Virus record (IMG/VR): IMGVR_UViG_3300045988_078724
Span: 31,033 to 95,032 of that record
Strand: one strand, 5' to 3'
Source of the DNA: a virus
Length of the DNA stretch: 64,000 nt
Each line of letters begins with the position of its first letter. The stretch's first letter is position 1. The translations under genes and the position numbers were made by a program. Below the pieces are notes generated by a model. That model was given only the letters and a program-made list of their open reading frames with translations, made no database searches and was not told the DNA's origin. This document shows positions 30,894-40,501 of the stretch, one piece after another.

Positions 30894-31250
30894 TCATATT
30901 ATTCCTTCCAAATTTACTTTAATAGAACCATTTATGGTTTTAATGCTCCCATCTATGGTTGAAATCACATCATCTATATCATTTATAATGCCTTCCATGT
31001 CATCAACCACCTCCTCCATATCAGTTACAGCCCGATCTGATTCCCAATATCTTTCTGAGTCTTGTAACGATTCCGGTATATTATCTCTCGCCTCCGTCTC
31101 TTCATCTAAAATCATATCAATATCATCTTTGGCTGAATTTATGTTGTGCTTTAACTCCGATAACTTTGATTTGATGTATTCAAAATCTGTTTTATACTTA
31201 TTTACATTGTTAATAACATCTAATATTCTTTTTCTTCTCTTGTTGTTCAT
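30894..31250 (-). CDS. acidic coiled-coil protein (118 aa)
   Basis: ORF, Asp/Glu/Ile-rich. Confidence 0.4.
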   Translation of the reverse strand: MNNKRRKRILDVINNVNKYKTDFEYIKSKLSELKHNINSAKDDIDMILDEETEARDNIPESLQDSERYWESDRAVTDMEEVVDDMEGIINDIDDVISTIDGSIKTINGSIKVNLEGII

Positions 31251-32671: not shown

Positions 32672-33044
32672 AATCTATTATATTATTTTTTGAAAGTTCT
32701 ATTATCGCCTCTTTCAACATCTCCCTTGCTTTATTCTCATTATCTTCAAACAGGCATACACTGCATGTAGCACCTTTGGAGGGGTAGTCTCTGTAGGCTT
32801 CTGCTCTTTCTACAACGTACTCACAACAATAGTCGTGACTCATGTCTTTTGCTATACTTATAAAATGATCTTCTCCATCCATCAACACGCAATATTCAGC
32901 ATCGTTTTCGCATGCAATAACACCTTTGTTTTTTAAAATGGATAGCACTTTATTTCCAAAAAGTCCAATATAGACCCATATATCTTTCCCTGCATTTTTG
33001 TAAAAAATACCCATCCCTTCTTTGATTGTGACTTTCTTTTCCAT
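32658..33044 (-). CDS. hypothetical Cys-rich protein (128 aa)
   Basis: ORF. Confidence 0.45.
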   Translation of the reverse strand: MEKKVTIKEGMGIFYKNAGKDIWVYIGLFGNKVLSILKNKGVIACENDAEYCVLMDGEDHFISIAKDMSHDYCCEYVVERAEAYRDYPSKGATCSVCLFEDNENKAREMLKEAIIELSKNNIIDCDGL

Positions 33045-33050
33045 AACCCC

Positions 33051-33374
33051 TTATTTTATATCAGTAATTAAAATATATTTTTCAACAATATCTTCAAGCT
33101 CCATAGAAAATAATAAACTTGGGCTTTTTTCGTACTCGTACAGGGCGAACCCTTCCTTTATGCCTAATATCTTAATCACATGCTTGCCTCTTTCAAATGG
33201 ATCCATGAAGTAGCCTTCGTATTCGTATCTTTGACCGACTTTTATTTTGTCAGTTTTCTTCTTCATCTTATAACGATCTACTGCTCTACATGTTTTTATG
33301 AAAGTTGTCATGAGCAAGTATAATAAAACTAAATACAAAAGGAGCATCACTCCACATGTTAGATCTTCTTTCAT
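33051..33374 (-). CDS. small membrane-anchored protein (107 aa)
   Basis: N-terminal hydrophobic segment GVMLLLYLVLLYLLMTTFI. Confidence 0.45.
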   Translation of the reverse strand: MKEDLTCGVMLLLYLVLLYLLMTTFIKTCRAVDRYKMKKKTDKIKVGQRYEYEGYFMDPFERGKHVIKILGIKEGFALYEYEKSPSLLFSMELEDIVEKYILITDIK

Positions 33375-33540
33375 TGGACTCCCTTTAAGTAGTTAAACCA
33401 TATATCCTCCAGTCTTTCCTGAAGCTCAAATGCTTTCTTAAAATTCCCGCTTCTTACAGCAACGTCTCTCATGTATTCTACGTTTATAACTTCCGGATCT
33501 TGCCGGTATTTCGTTCTTAACTTTTGAACATCCTCGTATT

Positions 33541-34560
33541 TCATCGTTTTATCTTTTTAGACGGATCCCAATCTGAAGAGAAAGGGCATTCGTTTTTGTT
33601 ATGTAATCCAAAGTCACAATAATAACACAGCGCCGACGGGCAGGGTAGCTTGTTTTGCGAAACAGGCTGGCTTAGGGTGGCGCGCCGCTTGCTATACCTG
33701 GATCCTTCTGCTCCCTGGATGTACGCTTGAAATGATTTTACACTATTATCTTCAAAATCATACATTTTAGACAAAGTGTCATTTAGCATTTCTATAGATT
33801 TTGTTTTACGCTCTTCATCTACCTTAACCTTTTGGTACTGCCTGGTTCTGGTAAAGAAATAGATGTTCATATCTGGCAGAACTCCACCATATTTTCTATA
33901 GATGTAAAATGAATATATAGGATGCTGTAAATTCGTTTCCAACTTCTTAGAATCAAAAACCTTATTCCCTGATTTCCAATCTATGACATAATGGTGAACT
34001 ACGTTCTTGCTTTTTATAGCCAGATGAAGGTCTACCGATCCTACTATGTACACATGAGTATGAACGGTCCCATTTATATCAACAGGCTTAGGAAGACGGT
34101 ACGGCAGCACAAAATCTTCTTCGACTCCAACTATGGCGCCGTGTCTGATAAGTTTCTCGCAGGGATTAAGATCACTATCAGCTATCATAAACCTATTCCC
34201 GTCTTTTTTAAACAGATCCACAATCCAAGCAAGAAGTTCTCCAGATTGTTTCATGGCTATCATCATATTTTCCGGTGATTGCCAAGGTATGTCTTCTTGA
34301 TAGGAATAGTAACTTATCGCTTCTCCAAGGTCTTTACCAGAAGGCTGTCTTCCGTTCTTAAAGAAGTATTCCAGTGTTTTATGGATAACCGTACCATAAG
34401 ATGTAGCTTCTTGTTTTTCTGTAGACCTTTTACCCTCTACGTAAGTCTTATACCATTTCATTGGACAAGTAAGAAACGTATCTATCTGGGAATAAGATAT
34501 GGCAAGACGTTTCACACCATTAAACTCCTTATATAGCAAATGTGTTTCCGGGACCATCAT
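33541..34560 (-). CDS. Cas4-like / RecB-family PD-(D/E)xK exonuclease with 4Fe-4S cysteines
   Basis: N-terminal Cys in TFLTCPMKWYKTYV, motif II GSVDL, motif III VIDWKSG, C-terminal CPCPSALCYYCDF...ECP. Confidence 0.7.
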   Translation of the reverse strand: MMVPETHLLYKEFNGVKRLAISYSQIDTFLTCPMKWYKTYVEGKRSTEKQEATSYGTVIHKTLEYFFKNGRQPSGKDLGEAISYYSYQEDIPWQSPENMMIAMKQSGELLAWIVDLFKKDGNRFMIADSDLNPCEKLIRHGAIVGVEEDFVLPYRLPKPVDINGTVHTHVYIVGSVDLHLAIKSKNVVHHYVIDWKSGNKVFDSKKLETNLQHPIYSFYIYRKYGGVLPDMNIYFFTRTRQYQKVKVDEERKTKSIEMLNDTLSKMYDFEDNSVKSFQAYIQGAEGSRYSKRRATLSQPVSQNKLPCPSALCYYCDFGLHNKNECPFSSDWDPSKKIKR

Positions 34561-34916
34561 AAGTCATTGTCTTTAAATCCTTCCGGGTAATATACGACAT
34601 ACTTCTTACCGTCTTCTGGTGTCATGGCAAACTGCATGTAGTTATTACGATTACGATGCTTACCATCTAATCCTCGCTTCCAATACAGAATCCCGTCTAT
34701 ATCCACATAAGACCGTCCGCGTTCGGCTCTAACTACGTCCGTGTGCAGCAGATACCCGTCGGAAGACACAATCCATACTTTATCTCCTTTGTTTAAATAA
34801 GATATTCTTTTTCTTACAACAACCTTTTTCTTATTATCCAATACAAATTCCTCGTCAGTCATACTCTTCATCCTCCTCTTCTTCTGTTTCAAAATCAATT
34901 CCATAACACTGATCAT
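34557..34916 (-). CDS. hypothetical protein (119 aa)
   Basis: ORF. Confidence 0.45.
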   Translation of the reverse strand: MISVMELILKQKKRRMKSMTDEEFVLDNKKKVVVRKRISYLNKGDKVWIVSSDGYLLHTDVVRAERGRSYVDIDGILYWKRGLDGKHRNRNNYMQFAMTPEDGKKYVVYYPEGFKDNDL

Positions 34917-35079
34917 AATGCTTGTTCAGTTCTTCTGGTTCTAAATCTTGTCCAAAATCCATGTTAAAAATATCGTAATTAGTAAAGCACTTAAAATCAC
35001 TGTCCCTGCCGGCAGGAAATCTATGAATGCTGCTTTTATTTCTTCAATTAGGCCCAAGTGTAACCTTGGGCCATTGTAT

Positions 35080-36768
35080 TTATTTTTTGTCATCTCCTTT
35101 TAACTTCTTTAAAGTATCTGCAATCGGAAGCTGATCAATGACTCCCAATGCCGGAGCGACGGTCTTGACAACATTGTTAAGGAAATTACCGGTACTGTTC
35201 TGACCGCCGTCAAATACCGTGATATTTCCGAGGTTAATGTGCTCAAATGCTTTAACCTGTTCTCCAGCAATTTCTTTCCACTGATTAACCATCTTGTACT
35301 GGATGGCGATCTGAGGATTGGATTCTGCTGCTTCCACCATAGCCTTAAATCCGTCGGCTTCTGCCATTAACGACTTTTTCTTACCTTCGGCTTCTGCCTC
35401 CAGCTTCATCTGAATAGCTTTTGCCTCTGCCTCAGCTTTTGCCAAATGTGCTGCTGCCTCAGCCCGGCGTTTGATCTTCTCGGCCTCGGCATCAGCTTGC
35501 AAGATAGCCTCTTCCTTCTGGGTTTCAGCCGGCACAATCTTTTCAGCCTTAAGCGCAGCCTGAACTTTCTTAGCCTTAGCTTCTTCCACTTCTTTGTCGG
35601 CAAGCTCTTTTGCTGTTTTTACAGCCGCTTCCGATTTAACTTTTTCTTCTCCGGCCTTCTTCTCTGATTGAGCTTTGATGATCTGTAGTTCTGATACTGA
35701 CACAGCAACCTCCTTCTGGGCATTGTTGTATCCTATAGACGCATTTTTCTCAGCCTTCTTAATCTGAGCTTCAGAGTCTTGTATTGCTATAGCTGCTTCC
35801 TTGTCAGCTTCAGCCTTATTCTTTCCGACTTCTTCCATCCTTTCAGCCTCGGCTTTATTTACTTCAAGTTCTGCCTTAGATCTTACGATCGCCGATTCCT
35901 TGTCGGTTAAAGTTTTTGCGATAACCGCAGCCCTGTCTCTATCTGCTTGAGCTACACCGATCTGTTTCTCTTTATCGGTTAAAGCTAAAGCTATTTCTTT
36001 TTCTTTCTTCGTTTCAGCTACTATCGTTTCCTTTTCTTTTTCAGTACAAGCAATTTGAATCTCTTGTTCTTTTTTGGTATTAGCTACAGCCGTTTCTTTC
36101 TCCTTCTGCTGTACAGCAATCTTAATAGCACCCAGCTTCTCCTGTTCTTCGATATTAGCCTGTGCTTCGTTCAGAGCCCTACTTTCGGCTTCCTTACCAA
36201 GGTTCATAATATAACCGGCTTCGTCTCTAATGTCACTGATGTTGATGTTCAGGAGGTAAAGACCTAACTTATTAAGCTCGTTATCAATGTTCTTTCTTGC
36301 CTTATCTAAAAACTCATCCCTGTCAGAATTAAGTTTTTCGATCGTCATTTCGGCAATAATCAAACGCATTTGACCGTAAACGATGTCCGTAATAAGATTT
36401 TCAGTAGATTCGGTATCCATTCCCAAAAGTCTTTCTGCCGCATTTTGCATGATTTCGGGATTTGTACTGATAGCTACTGTAATGGTTGTAGGTACATCTA
36501 CTCTAATATTCTGAGATGACAAAGCACCGGTAAGCTTGCAATCTATTTGCATAGGCTCCATTGACAAAACATCATAGCTTTGAATAATAGGCAAGACAAA
36601 TGCCGCTCCACCATGATATAATTTCGCCGACTTCTTTTCCCCACCTGTCTTACCGTAAACAACCAAGACCTGATTAGGCTTACATCTACGATACCTTGAT
36701 AAGACTCCGATGATTGTTAAAATAATCACTACAGCTAAGATAGCTGACACGTACATGATTGTTGTCAT
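35080..36768 (-). CDS. flotillin-like SPFH/band-7 protein (FloT/YqiK-like)
   Basis: N-terminal TM, SPFH domain, long Glu/Ala/Lys repeat coiled coil, C-terminal NPQIAIQYKMVNQWKEIAGEQ flotillin tail. Confidence 0.8.
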   Translation of the reverse strand: MTTIMYVSAILAVVIILTIIGVLSRYRRCKPNQVLVVYGKTGGEKKSAKLYHGGAAFVLPIIQSYDVLSMEPMQIDCKLTGALSSQNIRVDVPTTITVAISTNPEIMQNAAERLLGMDTESTENLITDIVYGQMRLIIAEMTIEKLNSDRDEFLDKARKNIDNELNKLGLYLLNINISDIRDEAGYIMNLGKEAESRALNEAQANIEEQEKLGAIKIAVQQKEKETAVANTKKEQEIQIACTEKEKETIVAETKKEKEIALALTDKEKQIGVAQADRDRAAVIAKTLTDKESAIVRSKAELEVNKAEAERMEEVGKNKAEADKEAAIAIQDSEAQIKKAEKNASIGYNNAQKEVAVSVSELQIIKAQSEKKAGEEKVKSEAAVKTAKELADKEVEEAKAKKVQAALKAEKIVPAETQKEEAILQADAEAEKIKRRAEAAAHLAKAEAEAKAIQMKLEAEAEGKKKSLMAEADGFKAMVEAAESNPQIAIQYKMVNQWKEIAGEQVKAFEHINLGNITVFDGGQNSTGNFLNNVVKTVAPALGVIDQLPIADTLKKLKGDDKK

Positions 36769-36801
36769 AACTTTTAAAATTTAATTGTTGATATAAAAAA
36801 A

Positions 36802-37296
36802 TTAGATACTTAATCCTCCTTCTTCGTATTTTATGTTCACCTTGTCACCATTTTTGTAATTTTTCCCAGACAAGCACCTTACTCTCATCTGTTCCTGTCT
36901 CTCGTTTTTCACAATATTTACCATATAATGGTTCTTTCCTGATCTAAATACTATCTCCACCTCTCTGCCATTTAAATTTTCTGGACATTCGTACACCATT
37001 TCTTGTTTTAACTTAAGAAGTAACTTATATACGTAAAACAAAACGATAAAGAAAAACGACCCTATCACAACCCCTACTAAATGAGAACCCGAAAAGTAGG
37101 TAGTCCAGCTATATCCAAGGATGAAATGTGTTATGCCCTTGAATGATATGATGTCCGACAAAGACATACTTAAATCAGAAGCACTGTCAATGTCAATATC
37201 CGTATCCAGATCAGATCCTAATATCGACAACAAAAACTGTATAACAAAAGCAAATGACGCTATTAAAGCCATGCATAAAATTATGTCACTTCCCAT
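36802..37296 (-). CDS. NfeD-like membrane protein (YuaF/YqiJ-like) with C-terminal OB-fold
   Basis: Membrane N-half plus C-terminal beta-rich GREVEIVFRSGKNHYMVNIV...KNGDKVNIKYEEGGLSI; immediately upstream of SPFH gene as in floT/yqiK operons. Confidence 0.55.
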   Translation of the reverse strand: MGSDIILCMALIASFAFVIQFLLSILGSDLDTDIDIDSASDLSMSLSDIISFKGITHFILGYSWTTYFSGSHLVGVVIGSFFFIVLFYVYKLLLKLKQEMVYECPENLNGREVEIVFRSGKNHYMVNIVKNERQEQMRVRCLSGKNYKNGDKVNIKYEEGGLSI

Positions 37297-37329
37297 ATCC
37301 TTCTGTTATTATTTTGTAAACAAGATCAG

Positions 37330-37536
37330 TCATATCTTTGATGGTCTCCATATCATAATCAATAATAACAATATTGAATTTTTGTCCACCATCACATCAA
37401 GCTCAATCCGATCAACAGAATCTAATCCAAGTTCTTTAAACGACACATCTTCTTCATGAACTATATCTATTTCCGAATTAAGAAACTGAGTAATAATTAT
37501 ATCCTCTATTATCTTTCTGATTCTTACTTTTTCCAT
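37330..37536 (-). CDS. hypothetical small acidic protein (68 aa)
   Basis: ORF. Confidence 0.3.
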   Translation of the reverse strand: MEKVRIRKIIEDIIITQFLNSEIDIVHEEDVSFKELGLDSVDRIELDVMVDKNSILLLLIMIWRPSKI

Positions 37537-38237
37537 TGCTTTCTAATTTTGTTAAATAAATACGTTTTTATGTTTTTCAATCGCTCTTTATCTGTCTCCG
37601 AGCTTCCGGTAAACAAATAATCCGGATTGCCTTTAGCCGGCGGCGTAGGCAATTTAGATACGGCAAACAACCAATCCATTTCCTTATTCTTCTTAGACTC
37701 CAAATAAGGCTCGGTAGCGATCTTAAATTTTTCAGCTATTAAGTCAAAGAGCTTTGAATTTTTAAGGTTCATATGGACTGAAAAAGCCTGAGAAGGCGGT
37801 TTCCATATGAAGTTACATAAGCTCATTGTATAATCTCCTGACTCTGCTATATAAGATTCCGTTACCTGAAGTATGACCTCTTTCTTGAATGAGGTGTTAC
37901 CCATAAACCAACACAATCTGGATTCCGCTTCTTTTCTGCTGACACCTATGTCTTTTGAATATGATTCGTACATTCCTATCATAATCTTCAACGTTTCCAG
38001 AACCTCGTCTGTCATCTCCGGTGTCTCTATATAATTCACAAAAGACGTTCCTTTGTTGGTCAATCTCATCACGCCTGATTTTAATTTCTCAACCAGGCCA
38101 AGCTCTATATATCTACCAGCATCTTCTTCCGGCATGGCTTCGATCATAACCGAATCCTTCTGTCTTATGGCAAGAAGATTGGCAAGATCATTAGGAGTCA
38201 TGTCTGATGCTGCAAGTTGTCTGAAATTGATGTACAT
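37524..38237 (-). CDS. hypothetical protein (237 aa)
   Basis: ORF. Confidence 0.5.
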   Translation of the reverse strand: MYINFRQLAASDMTPNDLANLLAIRQKDSVMIEAMPEEDAGRYIELGLVEKLKSGVMRLTNKGTSFVNYIETPEMTDEVLETLKIMIGMYESYSKDIGVSRKEAESRLCWFMGNTSFKKEVILQVTESYIAESGDYTMSLCNFIWKPPSQAFSVHMNLKNSKLFDLIAEKFKIATEPYLESKKNKEMDWLFAVSKLPTPPAKGNPDYLFTGSSETDKERLKNIKTYLFNKIRKQWKK

Positions 38238-38452
38238 TCTTAATCAGCTTTAATGAAAATAACATTCTTGTTATCTTGTCTATCAATATGTTCACATGGA
38301 CCAATAATCATGTCTGTACATGAACAATAATTGTATTTTTCGAATATACACCTATCGCATGTATCACCTTCCACACATTTTAATCTTACAAGTCCGGCAG
38401 TAAATACTTCTCCTACTTTAAATTCCTTCTTTTCCCTATTCCCTCCTTGTTT

Positions 38453-39055
38453 TTAACTGTTGTACCCTTCTTTAATAATCGAATTTCTACCGGTAGATAC
38501 CGACTGGCGAAGATCGTCATGTACAGAATCTACCGTAGAATACTTGTTTCTGGTTGTAAAAATCACTTCCAGCATCTCCTTGTAATCACCTAAAGCTACT
38601 TCGTATCTCGGATCTACTTTGGCTTTTCTTTCAGCCTCAGCATTACTTTTAGCCAGCTCCCGGTCGAGGAGGTCTTCTTTGATTCGGTCAGCAATCATAT
38701 CAAGTTCTTTTTTAATAACTTCTCCTGCTGCCCGAAGTTGACCTTCTACGTCACCAAGCTGGTCTTGGACGGTTCCTATTTCTTTCTTTAGGCGATCGTA
38801 TTCGTTAATCATACCCATATCACCTGCATAGCCGGAAAAGTCCTTGATTATTCTGGTTCCTTCTTTAAGGAGTTCAATAACTCGTCTTTTACGTTCTCTG
38901 CTTATTAAAGACGGAAGACGATAATTCATATCCGCCACCGCCTTATCATGTATGGAGTTGATTAAAAACATCTCTCTTTCATCCCCTGCAAACTCAGTAA
39001 GAACCAAAAGGAACTTACTTATCAGGTATTCGTTTTCTTCTACTGTTAGTCTCAT
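38453..39055 (-). CDS. hypothetical coiled-coil protein (200 aa)
   Basis: ORF. Confidence 0.5.
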   Translation of the reverse strand: MRLTVEENEYLISKFLLVLTEFAGDEREMFLINSIHDKAVADMNYRLPSLISRERKRRVIELLKEGTRIIKDFSGYAGDMGMINEYDRLKKEIGTVQDQLGDVEGQLRAAGEVIKKELDMIADRIKEDLLDRELAKSNAEAERKAKVDPRYEVALGDYKEMLEVIFTTRNKYSTVDSVHDDLRQSVSTGRNSIIKEGYNS

Positions 39056-39070
39056 GGTTCTTATTTTTTT

Positions 39071-40204
39071 TTAATACAATGACTGTTCTTCTTTTGTCTC
39101 TTGTTCTTGTTCCTGATTGTCCGTAACGTCTTCCACAGTATAGAGCTTGGGCGGCGTCGGCGGCTGGTTGGGGTTCACGAACTTCGTCCCGCCCTCCCCG
39201 TACATCCATCCATGCCCCGGCAGAATCTCTGGGTGGATTGTATTAGTAAGCTCTTCCATACTAACTTGCCTTACCTTCAGTATATGATGAAACACCAGTC
39301 CGGCTGTCCTGAATGATGTTTTGTTTTCAGTTTTAAACCTATCAAGAGTCTGATACCAATCTTTCCCAAATATCATATACTTATCCAGCCCGTACCTACG
39401 AGGATTGTGCAAACCTATCATTAACGTACATAACTGACCCAGCGTATCAGATTGGTAAAAATCAGAAAGACGCGGAGGCTGCTCTTGTGGGCTTTTTATC
39501 CTTCCTTCTATCTCTCTGTTGAATTGTGATATGATGAGGAAAAATATGTTTTTATATACTAATTTAGCTTCGTTCATAACCGCCACCAAATCATCTATAG
39601 CCGACTTAGGATCTAACCCCATTCTTTTTATCAAAGCAATATGATCGACTTTAAATATTATAAGACGTTTGTCTTTGTGTTTGGTAGCTATATGATACAC
39701 AGCCGCCTCAAACTCTTTTACCGTACACGGAGCATCGATGTATATTATATTATTCCTGATTTCACCTTGAAGGATTTCAAACATCCTCATCTCTTCCACT
39801 GTATTAGAATCTTGCCTTCTTAATATTTCAGGAGCCCGCTTTTTCATATCCTGGCTCATTCTACGAAGAAGAAGATCTTGAGGATTCATTTCGAACTCGC
39901 AATTAACAAGAAAATAATCTTCTGCTTGCGGGTTGATCATCGGATTCATCACATTTTCCAATATCTTTTGGGCCACATACGATTTACCTACAGATGGCCG
40001 GGCTCCTATGGCAATAGCATGCTGAGGGAAAATACCTCCAAGCAAAGCCTCATCAATATAATCGTATCCGGTTTTAGCGGGGATAAGCTCTCCCCGCCTG
40101 TATTTCAAGATATTCTCATACGCCTCTTCCATGACCTGTTTAGAGGTCTTGAATATTCTTCTTATATCTATCCTATTTGCTATCTCCTCGTGCATTTTTG
40201 TCAC
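39071..40204 (-). CDS. DnaB-like replicative helicase (C-terminal RecA-like domain)
   Basis: AIGARPSVGKS Walker A, IIFKVDHIALI Walker B, ISQFNREIEGR (DnaB SQLNR arginine-finger motif). Confidence 0.7.
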   Translation of the reverse strand: MTKMHEEIANRIDIRRIFKTSKQVMEEAYENILKYRRGELIPAKTGYDYIDEALLGGIFPQHAIAIGARPSVGKSYVAQKILENVMNPMINPQAEDYFLVNCEFEMNPQDLLLRRMSQDMKKRAPEILRRQDSNTVEEMRMFEILQGEIRNNIIYIDAPCTVKEFEAAVYHIATKHKDKRLIIFKVDHIALIKRMGLDPKSAIDDLVAVMNEAKLVYKNIFFLIISQFNREIEGRIKSPQEQPPRLSDFYQSDTLGQLCTLMIGLHNPRRYGLDKYMIFGKDWYQTLDRFKTENKTSFRTAGLVFHHILKVRQVSMEELTNTIHPEILPGHGWMYGEGGTKFVNPNQPPTPPKLYTVEDVTDNQEQEQETKEEQSLY

Positions 40205-40493
40205 CTTTTGTATCCGATTTGGATCCCCTATTAGCTTTTACTGATTTATACCTAAGACCGTTCTTGGTATGAGAACAATCCTTGCCTTTTCTCCAGCCCT
40301 TACCCTTCTTCTTGTCCGTTTCGTAGTTTTTACGACCAAGCTCCCGGCGTTTGGCTTTCTGTTCCGGTCTGGCATTTATCTCCTTGTCTTTTTTAGCCTT
40401 TTTCTTCCTGGCTTCGGGATGAGTCCTGTAGTACTCTGTTGATCTGCCCATCTTCTTACATTTTTTGATTGATAATAGCACAAAGATAGGCAA
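40173..40493 (-). CDS. Lys/Arg-rich basic protein (106 aa), possible DNA-binding
   Basis: ORF, ~35% K/R. Confidence 0.4.
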   Translation of the reverse strand: MPIFVLLSIKKCKKMGRSTEYYRTHPEARKKKAKKDKEINARPEQKAKRRELGRKNYETDKKKGKGWRKGKDCSHTKNGLRYKSVKANRGSKSDTKGDKNARGDSK

Positions 40494-40501
40494 TTCTCGC
40501 C

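Follow-up and report, generated by a model that had tools for sequence, protein, structure and literature searches.

A flotillin gene and a small membrane protein gene are paired in the phage replication block

The window, meaning the whole 64,000-nt stretch of viral DNA analysed here (positions 31,033 to 95,032 of IMG/VR virus record IMGVR_UViG_3300045988_078724), carries adjacent genes for a 164-aa NfeD-like protein and a 562-aa flotillin (Table 1). Both ORFs were verified in the window ORF list at the tabulated positions, with a spacer of 33 nt between them, compared with 35–89 nt in viral loci and 36–172 nt in bacterial loci. On a single strand, the genes follow each other in the order DnaB, two unknowns, an ACP-like gene, the NfeD-like gene, flotillin, a small ORF with a transmembrane (TM) segment, exonuclease and helicase. 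An earlier note on this DNA, made from the letters alone, had placed the pair within the replication block, and this setting was borne out by a PD-(D/E)XK exonuclease and a helicase downstream and a DnaB-like helicase and a primase upstream. The gene order of bacterial nfeD-floT operons, which had likewise been pointed out, is indeed present, with the partner gene directly 5′ of flotillin and co-oriented with it.

Surveying related phages for the pair revealed co-orientation in 80/80 viral loci and the same phage flanks in 80/80 IMG/VR contigs, and the pair was also found in a second phage lineage, on a 150-kb contig. The flotillin is already labelled 'flotillin family protein' in GenBank OR575929.1. 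The operon is presumably co-transcribed with the tightly packed replication genes on the same strand. A scan of positions 34400–39200 for sigma-70 promoters and terminators yielded 18 and 5 predictions, respectively, versus 13±3.8 and 2.7±1.5 in shuffled sequences, and thus no excess under a sigma-70 model that is unsuited to Bacteroidales promoters.

Table 1. Features of the nfeD-like–flotillin locus (window coordinates)
Feature	Position	Strand	Remark
50-aa ORF, C-terminal TM segment	34941..35093	(-)	overlaps flotillin stop by 14 nt
Flotillin, 562 aa	35080..36768	(-)	operon gene 2
Flotillin C-terminal domain, aa 446-555	35104..35433	(-)	PF15975
E/A/K-rich coiled-coil region, aa 212-445	35434..36135	(-)	from translation; conserved in relatives
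SPFH/Band_7 domain, aa 30-211	36136..36681	(-)	PF01145
Flotillin N-terminal membrane anchor, aa 5-24	36697..36756	(-)	hydrophobic MYVSAILAVVIILTIIGVLS, kept in relatives
Intergenic spacer, 33 nt, T-rich	36769..36801	(-)	upstream breakpoint of commonest flotillin deletion
NfeD-like partner, 164 aa	36802..37296	(-)	operon gene 1
C-terminal OB-like beta-barrel, aa 105-164 (beta domain 112-163 in model)	36805..36984	(-)	
Membrane-anchor part, aa 2-96 (TM1, acidic loop, TM2, TM3)	37009..37293	(-)	structure model
Acidic DxDxDxD loop, aa 28-45	37162-37215	(-)	

A 52-aa counterpart of the small ORF occupies the corresponding place in the second phage lineage; the ORF was not found in the bacterial operons compared. 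It is phage-specific and is co-deleted with flotillin (see below), and its coding status is uncertain because of a between-lineage dN/dS of 0.81.

The 562-aa protein is a flotillin family member

The predicted architecture of an N-terminal anchor, an SPFH/Band_7 domain, a stretch rich in Glu, Ala and Lys and a flotillin-type C-terminal domain held up. Searching with the SPFH profile matched Band_7 (PF01145) at aa 30-211 with an E-value of 7.5e-26 and 91.7 bits (cut-off 23.6), and the Pfam Flot model (PF15975) matched aa 446-555 with an E-value of 2.3e-9 and 37.8 bits (cut-off 27). The closest solved structures were human flotillin-2 and flotillin-1 (9bq2; E 7e-23 over aa 30-305), and all five PDB sequence matches were flotillin-1 or flotillin-2 chains (9bq2, 9l3g, 1win) rather than HflK/C, stomatin or prohibitin. 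The FloT equivalog model (NCBIfam NF058507) reached 138.6 bits, against a cut-off of 700 and over the N-terminal half only, indicating a flotillin family member that is no FloT equivalog; the chromosomal flotillin of P. vulgatus likewise remained below this cut-off, with 141 bits. No PHROG family matched the crAss-like flotillin.

The coiled coil is the most diverged and most length-variable part of the protein, and proteins that are otherwise at least 98% identical carry in-frame coiled-coil length variants of ~70–100 aa. Since Tandem Repeats Finder detected no DNA tandem repeat underneath the coiled coil, these variants do not stem from simple repeat slippage.

The partner protein is probably of the NfeD type

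The structure model of the 164-aa protein (mean pLDDT 89.5) displays TM helices at residues 2-25, 52-69 and 72-96, a predicted multi-pass membrane anchor that precedes the OB domain as in short-form NfeD proteins. Its C-terminal domain is predicted to form a five-stranded OB-like barrel resembling solved NfeD C-domains such as that of YuaF (2k14), and in an alignment of 72 family sequences residues D33, S51, K53, G54, H57 and F58 were nearly invariant. Of the NfeD assignment made in the earlier note, the membrane anchor, acidic loop, OB-like domain and operon position therefore stood, but not the match to the NfeD profile PF01957, which was not obtained in Pfam even at E<=10 and which only one of the 72 family members matched (6e-5).

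The YqiJ models (YqiJ_N PF21001 and YqiJ_OB PF07290), both of which match E. coli YqiJ, failed to match the phage protein as well, and nothing meaningful emerged from Pfam at E<=10, NCBIfam or PHROGs; weak SpoIIAA matches, located in the TM and loop region, were put down to chance. Aligning the family profile with YuaF 2k14 gave a weak match in the correct register (E 0.72), and aligning it with E. coli YqiJ by hhalign again gave the correct register at a non-significant E of 0.05 and a probability of 1%. Foldseek searches of the model against the PDB returned generic OB folds only, none of them significant (E>0.03), and the acidic-loop motif was sought in YqiJ and is not present there. These results would fit a small membrane protein that is unrelated to NfeD, carries a generic OB-like barrel and accompanies Bacteroidota flotillins by chance, which we nevertheless hold to be very unlikely. 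Homologues bridge the gap to named proteins, as a viral one (34% identical) bears the name 'NfeD-like C-terminal domain-containing protein' and one from B. xylanisolvens is given the COG name NfeD by one source. The NfeD-type assignment is thus partly supported, by predicted structure, operon position and bridging homologues.

Bacterial operons with nfeD followed by flotillin have been described, and in S. aureus the NfeD OB domain binds the FloA coiled coil, with holdase activity being reported (PMC11222466). By analogy, we infer that the OB domain of the phage partner is the flotillin-binding domain. The partner family comprises 399 clusters at 50% identity, without a Pfam model. Three frameshifted database proteins had raised the possibility of phase variation at a T-rich tract of the NfeD-like gene; the runs in this tract do not exceed 5 T and show no variation across ~160 viral loci, and this possibility was rejected.

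The operon derives from Bacteroidales

The phage flotillin is 62–67% identical over its full length to chromosomal flotillins of Bacteroidales, and the partner is 29–41% identical to its counterparts there. In 79/80 Bacteroidales loci the homologues of both genes are adjacent and co-oriented, and a median of 44 nt separates them. Epsilon crAss phages are predicted, with host range taken from CRISPR spacers, to infect Bacteroides, Parabacteroides and Porphyromonas (PMC11054128), and the nearest non-viral relatives of the pair are thus chromosomal genes of the host clade. Judging from these sequence relationships, the operon is Bacteroidales-derived as a whole, which goes beyond the reading of the earlier note. 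Neighbour-joining trees of both genes are concordant and place the phage clade, which is monophyletic, outside the sampled Bacteroidales crown group; median flotillin identity amounts to 88% between bacterial genera versus 67% between phage and bacteria. An ancestor of this epsilon crAss-like lineage would then have acquired both genes together, in a single capture long ago from a Bacteroidales-type host.

In B. xylanisolvens XB1A and Phocaeicola vulgatus ATCC 8482, the operon consists of a gene for a 165–177-aa membrane/OB protein followed by one for a 550–566-aa flotillin, and it shares with the phage locus its two genes, their order, strand and similar spacing, and full-length homology. However, the phage coiled coil is ~30 aa longer than the host version, the Lys/Pro-rich C-terminal tail of host flotillins is missing, and the overlapping 50-aa TM ORF and the upstream ACP-like gene of the phage have no counterpart in the bacterial loci. 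Divergence from the host is distributed unevenly over the two proteins. The SPFH/Band_7 and C-terminal domains of flotillin are 74–76% and 77–80% identical to those of the host and retain 88% and 97% of the host-invariant residues, respectively, while the coiled coil is 46–50% identical, retains 74% of these residues and accounts for 20/32 phage-specific changes. In the NfeD-like protein, TM2-TM3 retain 92% of the Bacteroidales-invariant residues and the OB domain 50%.

Both genes are under purifying selection and flotillin is recurrently deleted

Since dS between the two phage lineages is saturated, dN/dS values between them were set aside and comparisons within the lineage were used. These yielded 0.027 for flotillin and 0.076 for the NfeD-like gene, versus 0.050 for DnaB and 0.052 for the exonuclease, showing that both genes are under strong purifying selection where present.

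Intact flotillin was nevertheless missing in 19/78 neighbour-anchored contigs (~24%). The commonest deletion spans window positions ~34969–36798, whereby flotillin and the small ORF are lost together. Deletion junctions differ among contigs, share at most a few nt of microhomology (0–6 nt) and are seen repeatedly across IMG/VR, ENA and Logan; such short homologies are far below assembler k-mer length, and assembly artefacts were consequently rejected as their cause. The common deletion allele is scattered over flank backgrounds, many junctions are independent, and additional fusion proteins are present in other datasets. A later insertion of flotillin into an ancestral locus without it was rejected as well, because the pair is adjacent in both phage lineages and in the bacterial donors, the gene trees agree, and the flotillin-less contigs nest inside the flotillin-bearing lineage. 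In 16 flotillin-less genomes the NfeD-like gene is intact, with a dN/dS of 0.088. Flotillin is therefore a useful yet optional accessory gene that is dispensable for the core replication cycle, and its absence from ~24% of genomes argues against an essential role in replication or assembly.

Because the flotillin is host-like and often deleted, the locus could be suspected to be mis-assembled host DNA, a chimera that the earlier note had itself considered, or a recent, decaying fragment without function. However, 80/80 independent viral contigs, as well as a deposited complete genome, show the same junctions with phage genes on either side, and the pair is carried by two lineages between which synonymous sites are saturated. 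Its dN/dS of 0.03–0.08 moreover equals that of core replication genes, and its identity to any sampled bacterium is just ~65%, which indicates that the pair is no recent contaminant. An artefact or neutral passenger is thereby already refuted, with a negligible probability left to it, and the operon is a stably embedded, host-derived accessory module of the phage.

Possible roles of the captured operon

The best explanation, to which we assign a probability slightly above even (roughly 0.55), is that a captured Bacteroidales nfeD-flotillin operon provides a membrane scaffold that helps the phage conditionally. By analogy with bacterial FloA/FloT-NfeD, such a scaffold would operate in an infected or persistently carried Bacteroidales cell, where the N-terminal anchor and the SPFH domain would mediate membrane insertion of flotillin, and the coiled coil and C-terminal domain its oligomerisation on the cytoplasmic side of the inner membrane. 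The NfeD-like OB domain would bind the flotillin coiled coil and promote assembly, after which the scaffold may organise or stabilise membrane proteins (as a microdomain or holdase) and keep the host envelope working to the benefit of the phage. This benefit may be conditional, for example on host or stress, which under our proposal would leave the flotillin gene either intact or cleanly lost.

Alternatively, the phage proteins might co-assemble with the host flotillin-NfeD complex or displace it, thereby re-targeting or disabling microdomains in a dominant-negative or hijacking manner, with envelope stress responses, secretion or membrane-bound proteases as examples of targets and the NfeD-like protein as the main effector, directed at host flotillin. 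The hosts possess a flotillin operon of their own, and the host-like SPFH and C-terminal domains (74–80% identical, with 88–97% of invariant residues retained) make mixed phage/host oligomers plausible; the constraint on the NfeD-like gene in flotillin-less genomes is also expected if host flotillin can be used. However, the parts that make contact in S. aureus, i.e. OB domain and coiled coil (PMC11222466), are the most diverged ones, with 50% and 74% of invariant residues retained, a divergence pattern that fits a self-contained, co-evolved pair better than a host mimic. We therefore regard such subversion as fairly unlikely. In a reading that remains an unlikely one, the contact surfaces of NfeD-OB and coiled coil may have diverged from those of the host to yield a co-evolved, self-contained membrane cage that sequesters specific host membrane proteins during persistent infection, for instance FtsH or another protease, or a defence effector acting at the membrane. 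Such a cage may be sensed or costly in some hosts, resulting in recurrent clean deletion of flotillin, and the spared NfeD-like protein might then act on host flotillin.

The pair might also be a conflict module that mediates superinfection exclusion at the membrane, protects from membrane-targeting abortive-infection effectors or is itself a trigger sensed by some host defences, in which case its liability in some hosts would explain the recurrent deletions. Accessory or conflict genes that are costly under some conditions typically show this pattern, in which a gene is either intact under strong purifying selection or cleanly deleted, and exclusion genes are common in phages with a persistent lifestyle. 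Nevertheless, the gene lies inside the replication block and outside any recognisable moron or immunity region, and PADLOC (5027 models) gave 0 matches for flotillin, partner, small ORF and two neighbours. Literature searches turned up no exclusion or anti-defence system based on flotillin, nor do we know of one. Epsilon crAss phages do carry genes for a repressor and for anti-repressors and possibly persist in their host cells (PMC11054128), and overall we deem a conflict module quite unlikely.

Independently of its exact role, a very abundant human-gut phage lineage keeps a complete, diverged host operon under selection as strong as that on its replication genes, while the role of bacterial flotillin/NfeD itself is debated between microdomain scaffold, membrane fluidity and ATP-independent holdase. 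Intact and clean flotillin-minus phage genotypes offer a ready comparison in the Bacteroidales-crAss system; if the membrane cage described above exists, they would amount to a natural plus/minus genetic experiment on the role of bacterial flotillin, and the phage would be the first viral system to build or re-wire SPFH microdomains. In addition, a large unmodelled family, mostly annotated as 'hypothetical' or 'transmembrane protein', is now defined as the probable NfeD-type partner of Bacteroidota flotillins. Novelty is limited by the existing GenBank flotillin label, by SPFH genes in other phages and by host-gene capture being commonplace.

Comparison with known flotillin systems

The eukaryotic flotillin-1/flotillin-2 complex (9bq2, 9l3g) follows the same plan of SPFH domain, coiled coil and C-terminal domain. 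Eukaryotic flotillins are hetero-oligomers and are anchored by acylation and hairpins instead of a TM helix. They lack an NfeD partner, as NfeD is exclusive to prokaryotes (PMC11222466).

Among phages, SPFH genes have been described in Vibrio phage KIT04 ('flotillin family protein') and in Schitoviridae phage GIB1 (an SPFH lipoprotein), and the PaP3-like, KPP10 and PAK_P3 Pseudomonas phages likewise carry SPFH proteins (PMC13239085, PMC8540360). These other phage SPFH proteins are just 24–31% identical to the crAss-like flotillin over the SPFH half, which marks them as independent acquisitions. KIT04 encodes a small acidic-loop protein with three TM segments directly upstream, yet without an OB domain, and for none of the other phage SPFH genes has a complete NfeD-type OB partner been reported. 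Of these phage SPFH genes, the crAss-like flotillin is the one with population data on gain or loss.

Among bacteria, sequence likeness to Firmicute and enterobacterial flotillins is low (23% identity to YqiK), and the partner differs from YqiJ in its DxDxDxD loop and in its profile matches, as detailed above. Nevertheless, B. subtilis yuaF-floT (yuaG), S. aureus nfeD-floA and E. coli yqiJ-yqiK all follow the same logic of an OB-fold membrane partner preceding flotillin, and the domain architecture of both proteins is shared with the phage pair, down to the predicted likeness of its OB domain to that of YuaF.

The window encodes a flotillin preceded by a small membrane protein

The 562-aa product of the window matched Band_7/SPFH (aa 30–211, E = 7.5e-26) and the flotillin C-terminal domain PF15975 (aa 446–555, E = 2.3e-9), both past the curated Pfam thresholds, and its sequence matches among solved structures were flotillin-1 and flotillin-2 only (9bq2, 9l3g, 1win; best E 7e-23). 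The flotillin gene and upstream small ORF described in the earlier note were thus both present. The NCBIfam model for the FloT equivalog gave it 138.6 bits where 700 are required, so that by sequence it belongs to the flotillin family but does not qualify as the equivalog of FloT from B. subtilis. No PHROG family matched it.

Features of the flotillin locus (window positions)
Feature	Position	Strand	Description
NfeD-like protein	36802–37296	–	ORF, 164 aa; first gene, upstream of flotillin
Flotillin	35080–36768	–	ORF, 562 aa; second gene, 33 nt after the NfeD-like ORF
Small ORF with C-terminal TM segment	34941–35093	–	50 aa; overlaps the flotillin stop codon
Coiled-coil length variants	35434–36135	–	Homologues P0146, P0148, P0150, P0155; long contigs, up to 151 kb

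In-frame deletions of ~70–100 aa were found in the coiled coil, differing among proteins otherwise ≥98% identical; if real, they would alter the size of any flotillin assembly. No DNA tandem repeat was found beneath this region. The small TM ORF (50–52 aa) and the flotillin stop codon overlap in each of the two phage lineages (L163 9694–9852 in a second-lineage contig). The ORF is 34% identical between them with a dN/dS of 0.81, and is absent from bacterial operons; we regard it as no more than a putative gene.

Across the full length of window 33000–40500, the epsilon crAss-like phage CrAssE-Sib (OR575929.1; 151 kb; human gut) was 96.7% identical, and a 149.5-kb metagenome contig encodes proteins identical to the window's. 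The OR575929.1 record labels the large gene 'flotillin family protein', the small gene 'transmembrane protein' and the gene upstream 'acyl carrier protein'. The CrAssE-Sib genome paper makes no mention of flotillin, SPFH, NfeD or membranes (PMC11054128), and our literature search found no paper treating crAss-like phages and flotillin together.

The upstream protein is NfeD-like by predicted structure and context

The proposal that the upstream protein is an NfeD stood as far as structure and context go and failed by sequence models: the 164-aa protein matched nothing in Pfam, PF01957 included, even at E ≤ 10, nor any PHROG, and nothing meaningful in NCBIfam. A profile search over 1.84 billion representative proteins (E ≤ 0.001) defined a coherent family of 399 clusters, mostly 160–180 aa, in which PF01957 touched only one of 72 sampled members, at 6e-5. 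The family profile aligned to the YuaF NfeD domain (2k14) at the right position with an E of 0.72, and to E. coli YqiJ, which itself matches the YqiJ_N and YqiJ_OB models, with an E of 0.05 and a probability of 1%.

From a 72-sequence alignment, AlphaFold2 produced a confident model (pLDDT 89.5) in which three TM helices and an acidic loop precede a small β-barrel at the C-terminus. From the PDB, Foldseek returned generic OB folds only. A viral structure library yielded a 175-aa 'NfeD-like C-terminal domain-containing protein', 34% identical over its full length (E 1.3e-12). The B. xylanisolvens homologue bears a COG NfeD name in one database source, and is 'hypothetical' or 'transmembrane' in NCBI and UniRef. 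Given the modelled fold and gene context, rather than sequence models, we call the 164-aa protein NfeD-like and place it among short flotillin partners of the NfeD type, in a Bacteroidota branch that no sequence model covers.

Directly upstream of the NfeD-like gene lies an ACP-like gene (37330–37536, –), frameshifted near 37385/37386 by the loss of 1 nt ('GGTGG-ACAAAAA') that CrAssE-Sib and the second lineage retain, which leaves 68 instead of 83–88 aa and no overlap with the NfeD-like start. This frameshift is either a sequencing error or marks a pseudogene in this genome. In relatives the product matches PF00550 (PP-binding) and carries the DSxD serine motif; the gene is absent from bacterial flotillin loci. 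Between DnaB and a 237-aa gene sits a 200-aa protein (38453–39055, –) without Pfam, PHROG or PADLOC match, whose median identity over 79 viral contigs is 100% and whose dN/dS of 0.003 is ten-fold below that of DnaB.

The gene pair resides in phage genomes and is under purifying selection

The concern that the locus might be host DNA in a chimeric assembly was dispelled by 80 IMG/VR contigs retrieved with the flotillin gene, in all of which the pair is flanked on either side by an unchanged set of phage genes (exonuclease, DnaB, unknowns) at 95–100% identity. Surveyed among related phages, the pair was present in these contigs as well as in a second phage lineage (contigs up to 150 kb) with an identical order of DnaB, 200-aa, 237-aa, ACP, NfeD-like, flotillin, 52-aa ORF, exonuclease and helicase genes. 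Its flotillin and partner are 82% and 62% identical to those of the window, and synonymous sites between the lineages are saturated.

In two of three otherwise collinear second-lineage contigs, an IS605-family OrfB/Cas12f-like TnpB gene (PF01385, PF07282; L162 15180–16034, L164 15183–16037) lies just upstream of a NAMPT/NAPRTase (NAD salvage) gene. It is absent at the same site in the third (L163), constituting an insertion polymorphism within a crAss-like phage genome. The NAMPT/NAPRTase product is 820 aa in L163, and shorter or cut in L162 and L164.

Within the window's lineage, dN/dS was 0.027 for flotillin and 0.076 for the partner, versus 0.050 for DnaB and 0.052 for exonuclease. Within-lineage dS of the two genes (0.21–0.25) was about twice that of flanking replication genes (0.10–0.13); recombination could account for this, as could a separate history of the cassette.

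Of the residues that 22 Bacteroidales sequences share without variation, TM+SPFH of the phage flotillin kept 88%, its C-terminal domain 97% and its coiled coil 74%; the partner kept 92% of invariant residues in TM2–TM3 and only 50% in both the OB domain and the acidic loop. Because FloA of S. aureus is bound at its coiled coil by the OB-like domain of NfeD (PMC11222466), the most diverged regions, OB domain and coiled coil, are the presumed contact surfaces. Their divergence suggests a co-evolved pair, the same regions also being generally the least constrained.

The operon probably derives from Bacteroidales

With one genome per GTDB species, 107 flotillin relatives were found, all in Bacteroidales (Bacteroides, Parabacteroides, Phocaeicola, Prevotella and allies) and 62–67% identical over their full length. 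The gene directly upstream of flotillin in B. xylanisolvens XB1A and P. vulgatus encodes a partner homologue of 165 or 177 aa. Such a homologue likewise precedes flotillin in 79 of 80 fetched bacterial loci; the two genes invariably share a strand, the gap between them has a median of 44 nt, and the partner is 29–41% identical to the phage protein. None of the phage flanking genes occurs in these 80 loci. One database flotillin of Bacteroides type (P0159; 659 aa, 33-kb ENA contig) has the end of its SPFH domain tandemly duplicated ('STDPEVMQNAAERMLGL...' repeated), either as a real variant or as an assembly artefact of a bacterial contig.

Neighbour-joining trees of flotillin and partner agree in uniting both phage lineages in one clade, branching outside the sampled Bacteroidaceae, Tannerellaceae and Prevotellaceae. 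Flotillin identity has a between-genus median of 88% among bacteria versus 67% between phage and bacteria. The simplest reading of these sequences is that the whole operon was captured once, long ago, from a Bacteroidales-type host, although a closer donor among unsampled bacteria, or acceleration after capture, may also be at work. A Bacteroidales-type donor agrees with the CRISPR-predicted hosts of epsilon crAss-like phages, being Bacteroides, Parabacteroides and Porphyromonas (PMC11054128).

Flotillin is frequently lost from natural genomes

Among database homologues of the partner are truncated forms, some of which join its N-terminus in frame to the C-terminus of flotillin. Two contigs with such variants had intact phage context and deletions of 1572 nt and 1740 nt, without microhomology at the junctions. 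To avoid ascertainment bias, IMG/VR was sampled via the conserved neighbouring 237-aa gene, yielding 78 contigs with both flanks. Both genes were intact in 57, and flotillin was split or frameshifted in 2. Intact flotillin was missing from the other 19 (24%), 17 of which kept a full-length NfeD-like ORF. IMG/VR totals of 203 contigs with the neighbour gene versus 165 with a flotillin relative agree with this sample.

Fourteen of the 19 flotillin-less contigs had essentially one common junction, and the other 5 unique ones. The common deletion (window ~34969–36798) removes flotillin and most of the 50-aa ORF, running from the T-rich spacer past the NfeD-like stop codon to the T-run ahead of the next small ORF's ATG, and has at least two sub-forms. 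Since this allele is scattered across flank-sequence backgrounds (8 Fitch changes, 14 leaves), it must either have recurred or have spread through recombination. The NfeD-like gene had a dN/dS of 0.088 in flotillin-less versus 0.049 in intact genomes, with no internal stops in the former. The flotillin pair is kept by purifying selection yet dispensable, and the frequent loss of flotillin contradicts an essential role.

Just downstream of the cassette is a second indel hotspot (window ~34903–34905), where several contigs (L176, L180, L187, L189, L205, L219, L242) carry ~360 nt not aligning to the window, called as 35-aa and 101–104-aa ORFs, between the small TM ORF and a 119-aa gene.

Possible roles of the pair

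The operon is embedded in the replication-gene block and leaves no room for a promoter of its own, because the ORFs overlap or are closely spaced. By analogy with bacterial systems (PMC11222466, PMC13086221), flotillin would anchor in the inner membrane and oligomerise, the partner's OB domain would bind the coiled coil and promote assembly, and the assembly would organise or stabilise membrane proteins. In this phage lineage a repressor and anti-repressors are present and an integrase is missing, and carrier states are a known trait of crAss-like phages (PMC11054128). Because the lineage thus appears to persist in its host, it could plausibly benefit, under some conditions, from helping the envelope to stay functional while infected cells live on. 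While identity and origin of the pair are near-certain, its physiological role is much less so, and we give a host-derived operon supporting the infected cell's envelope a probability of roughly 0.55.

Alternatively, the pair might subvert the host's own flotillin system, which would fit both a partner that is kept when phage flotillin is gone and assembly domains so close to those of the host; however, the diverged contact surfaces speak against it, and we deem this unlikely. A part in exclusion or defence conflict would fit the keep-or-delete pattern in the population, but has neither a PADLOC match nor a precedent, making it improbable. It is quite improbable, too, that the partner is unrelated to NfeD. 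An artefact or neutral passenger has a negligible chance, being ruled out by the phage flanks in 80/80 contigs, the second lineage and the low dN/dS.

Comparison with known systems

Other phages reported to carry SPFH or flotillin genes include Schitoviridae phage GIB1 and several Pseudomonas phages, for reasons their authors considered unclear (PMC13239085, PMC8540360). The T5-like Vibrio phage KIT04 (LC487410.1) encodes a 473-aa protein annotated as flotillin (L247 2929–4350), ~29% identical and independently acquired. The 82-aa protein encoded upstream of it (L247 2680–2928) has an acidic loop ('LTDLDDV') and three hydrophobic segments but lacks an OB domain, and may be a truncated NfeD-type anchor. 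As SPFH/flotillin genes of other phages are only 24–31% identical to the crAss-like one, which matches no PHROG, sequence comparison argues for its independent acquisition.

The pair belongs to a known kind, that of host-derived accessory genes and phage-borne SPFH proteins, and we claim no new principle. Its value lies in defining an unmodelled NfeD-like family and in a natural comparison of flotillin-plus with flotillin-minus genomes in a dominant gut phage-host system. As far as we found, it is the only phage flotillin with a complete NfeD-type partner and population-level gain/loss data. Its nearest counterpart is the operon on Bacteroidales chromosomes, whereas the functionally characterised yuaF-floT, nfeD-floA and yqiJ-yqiK share architecture and operon logic with the phage pair but little sequence likeness (23% identity for YqiK).
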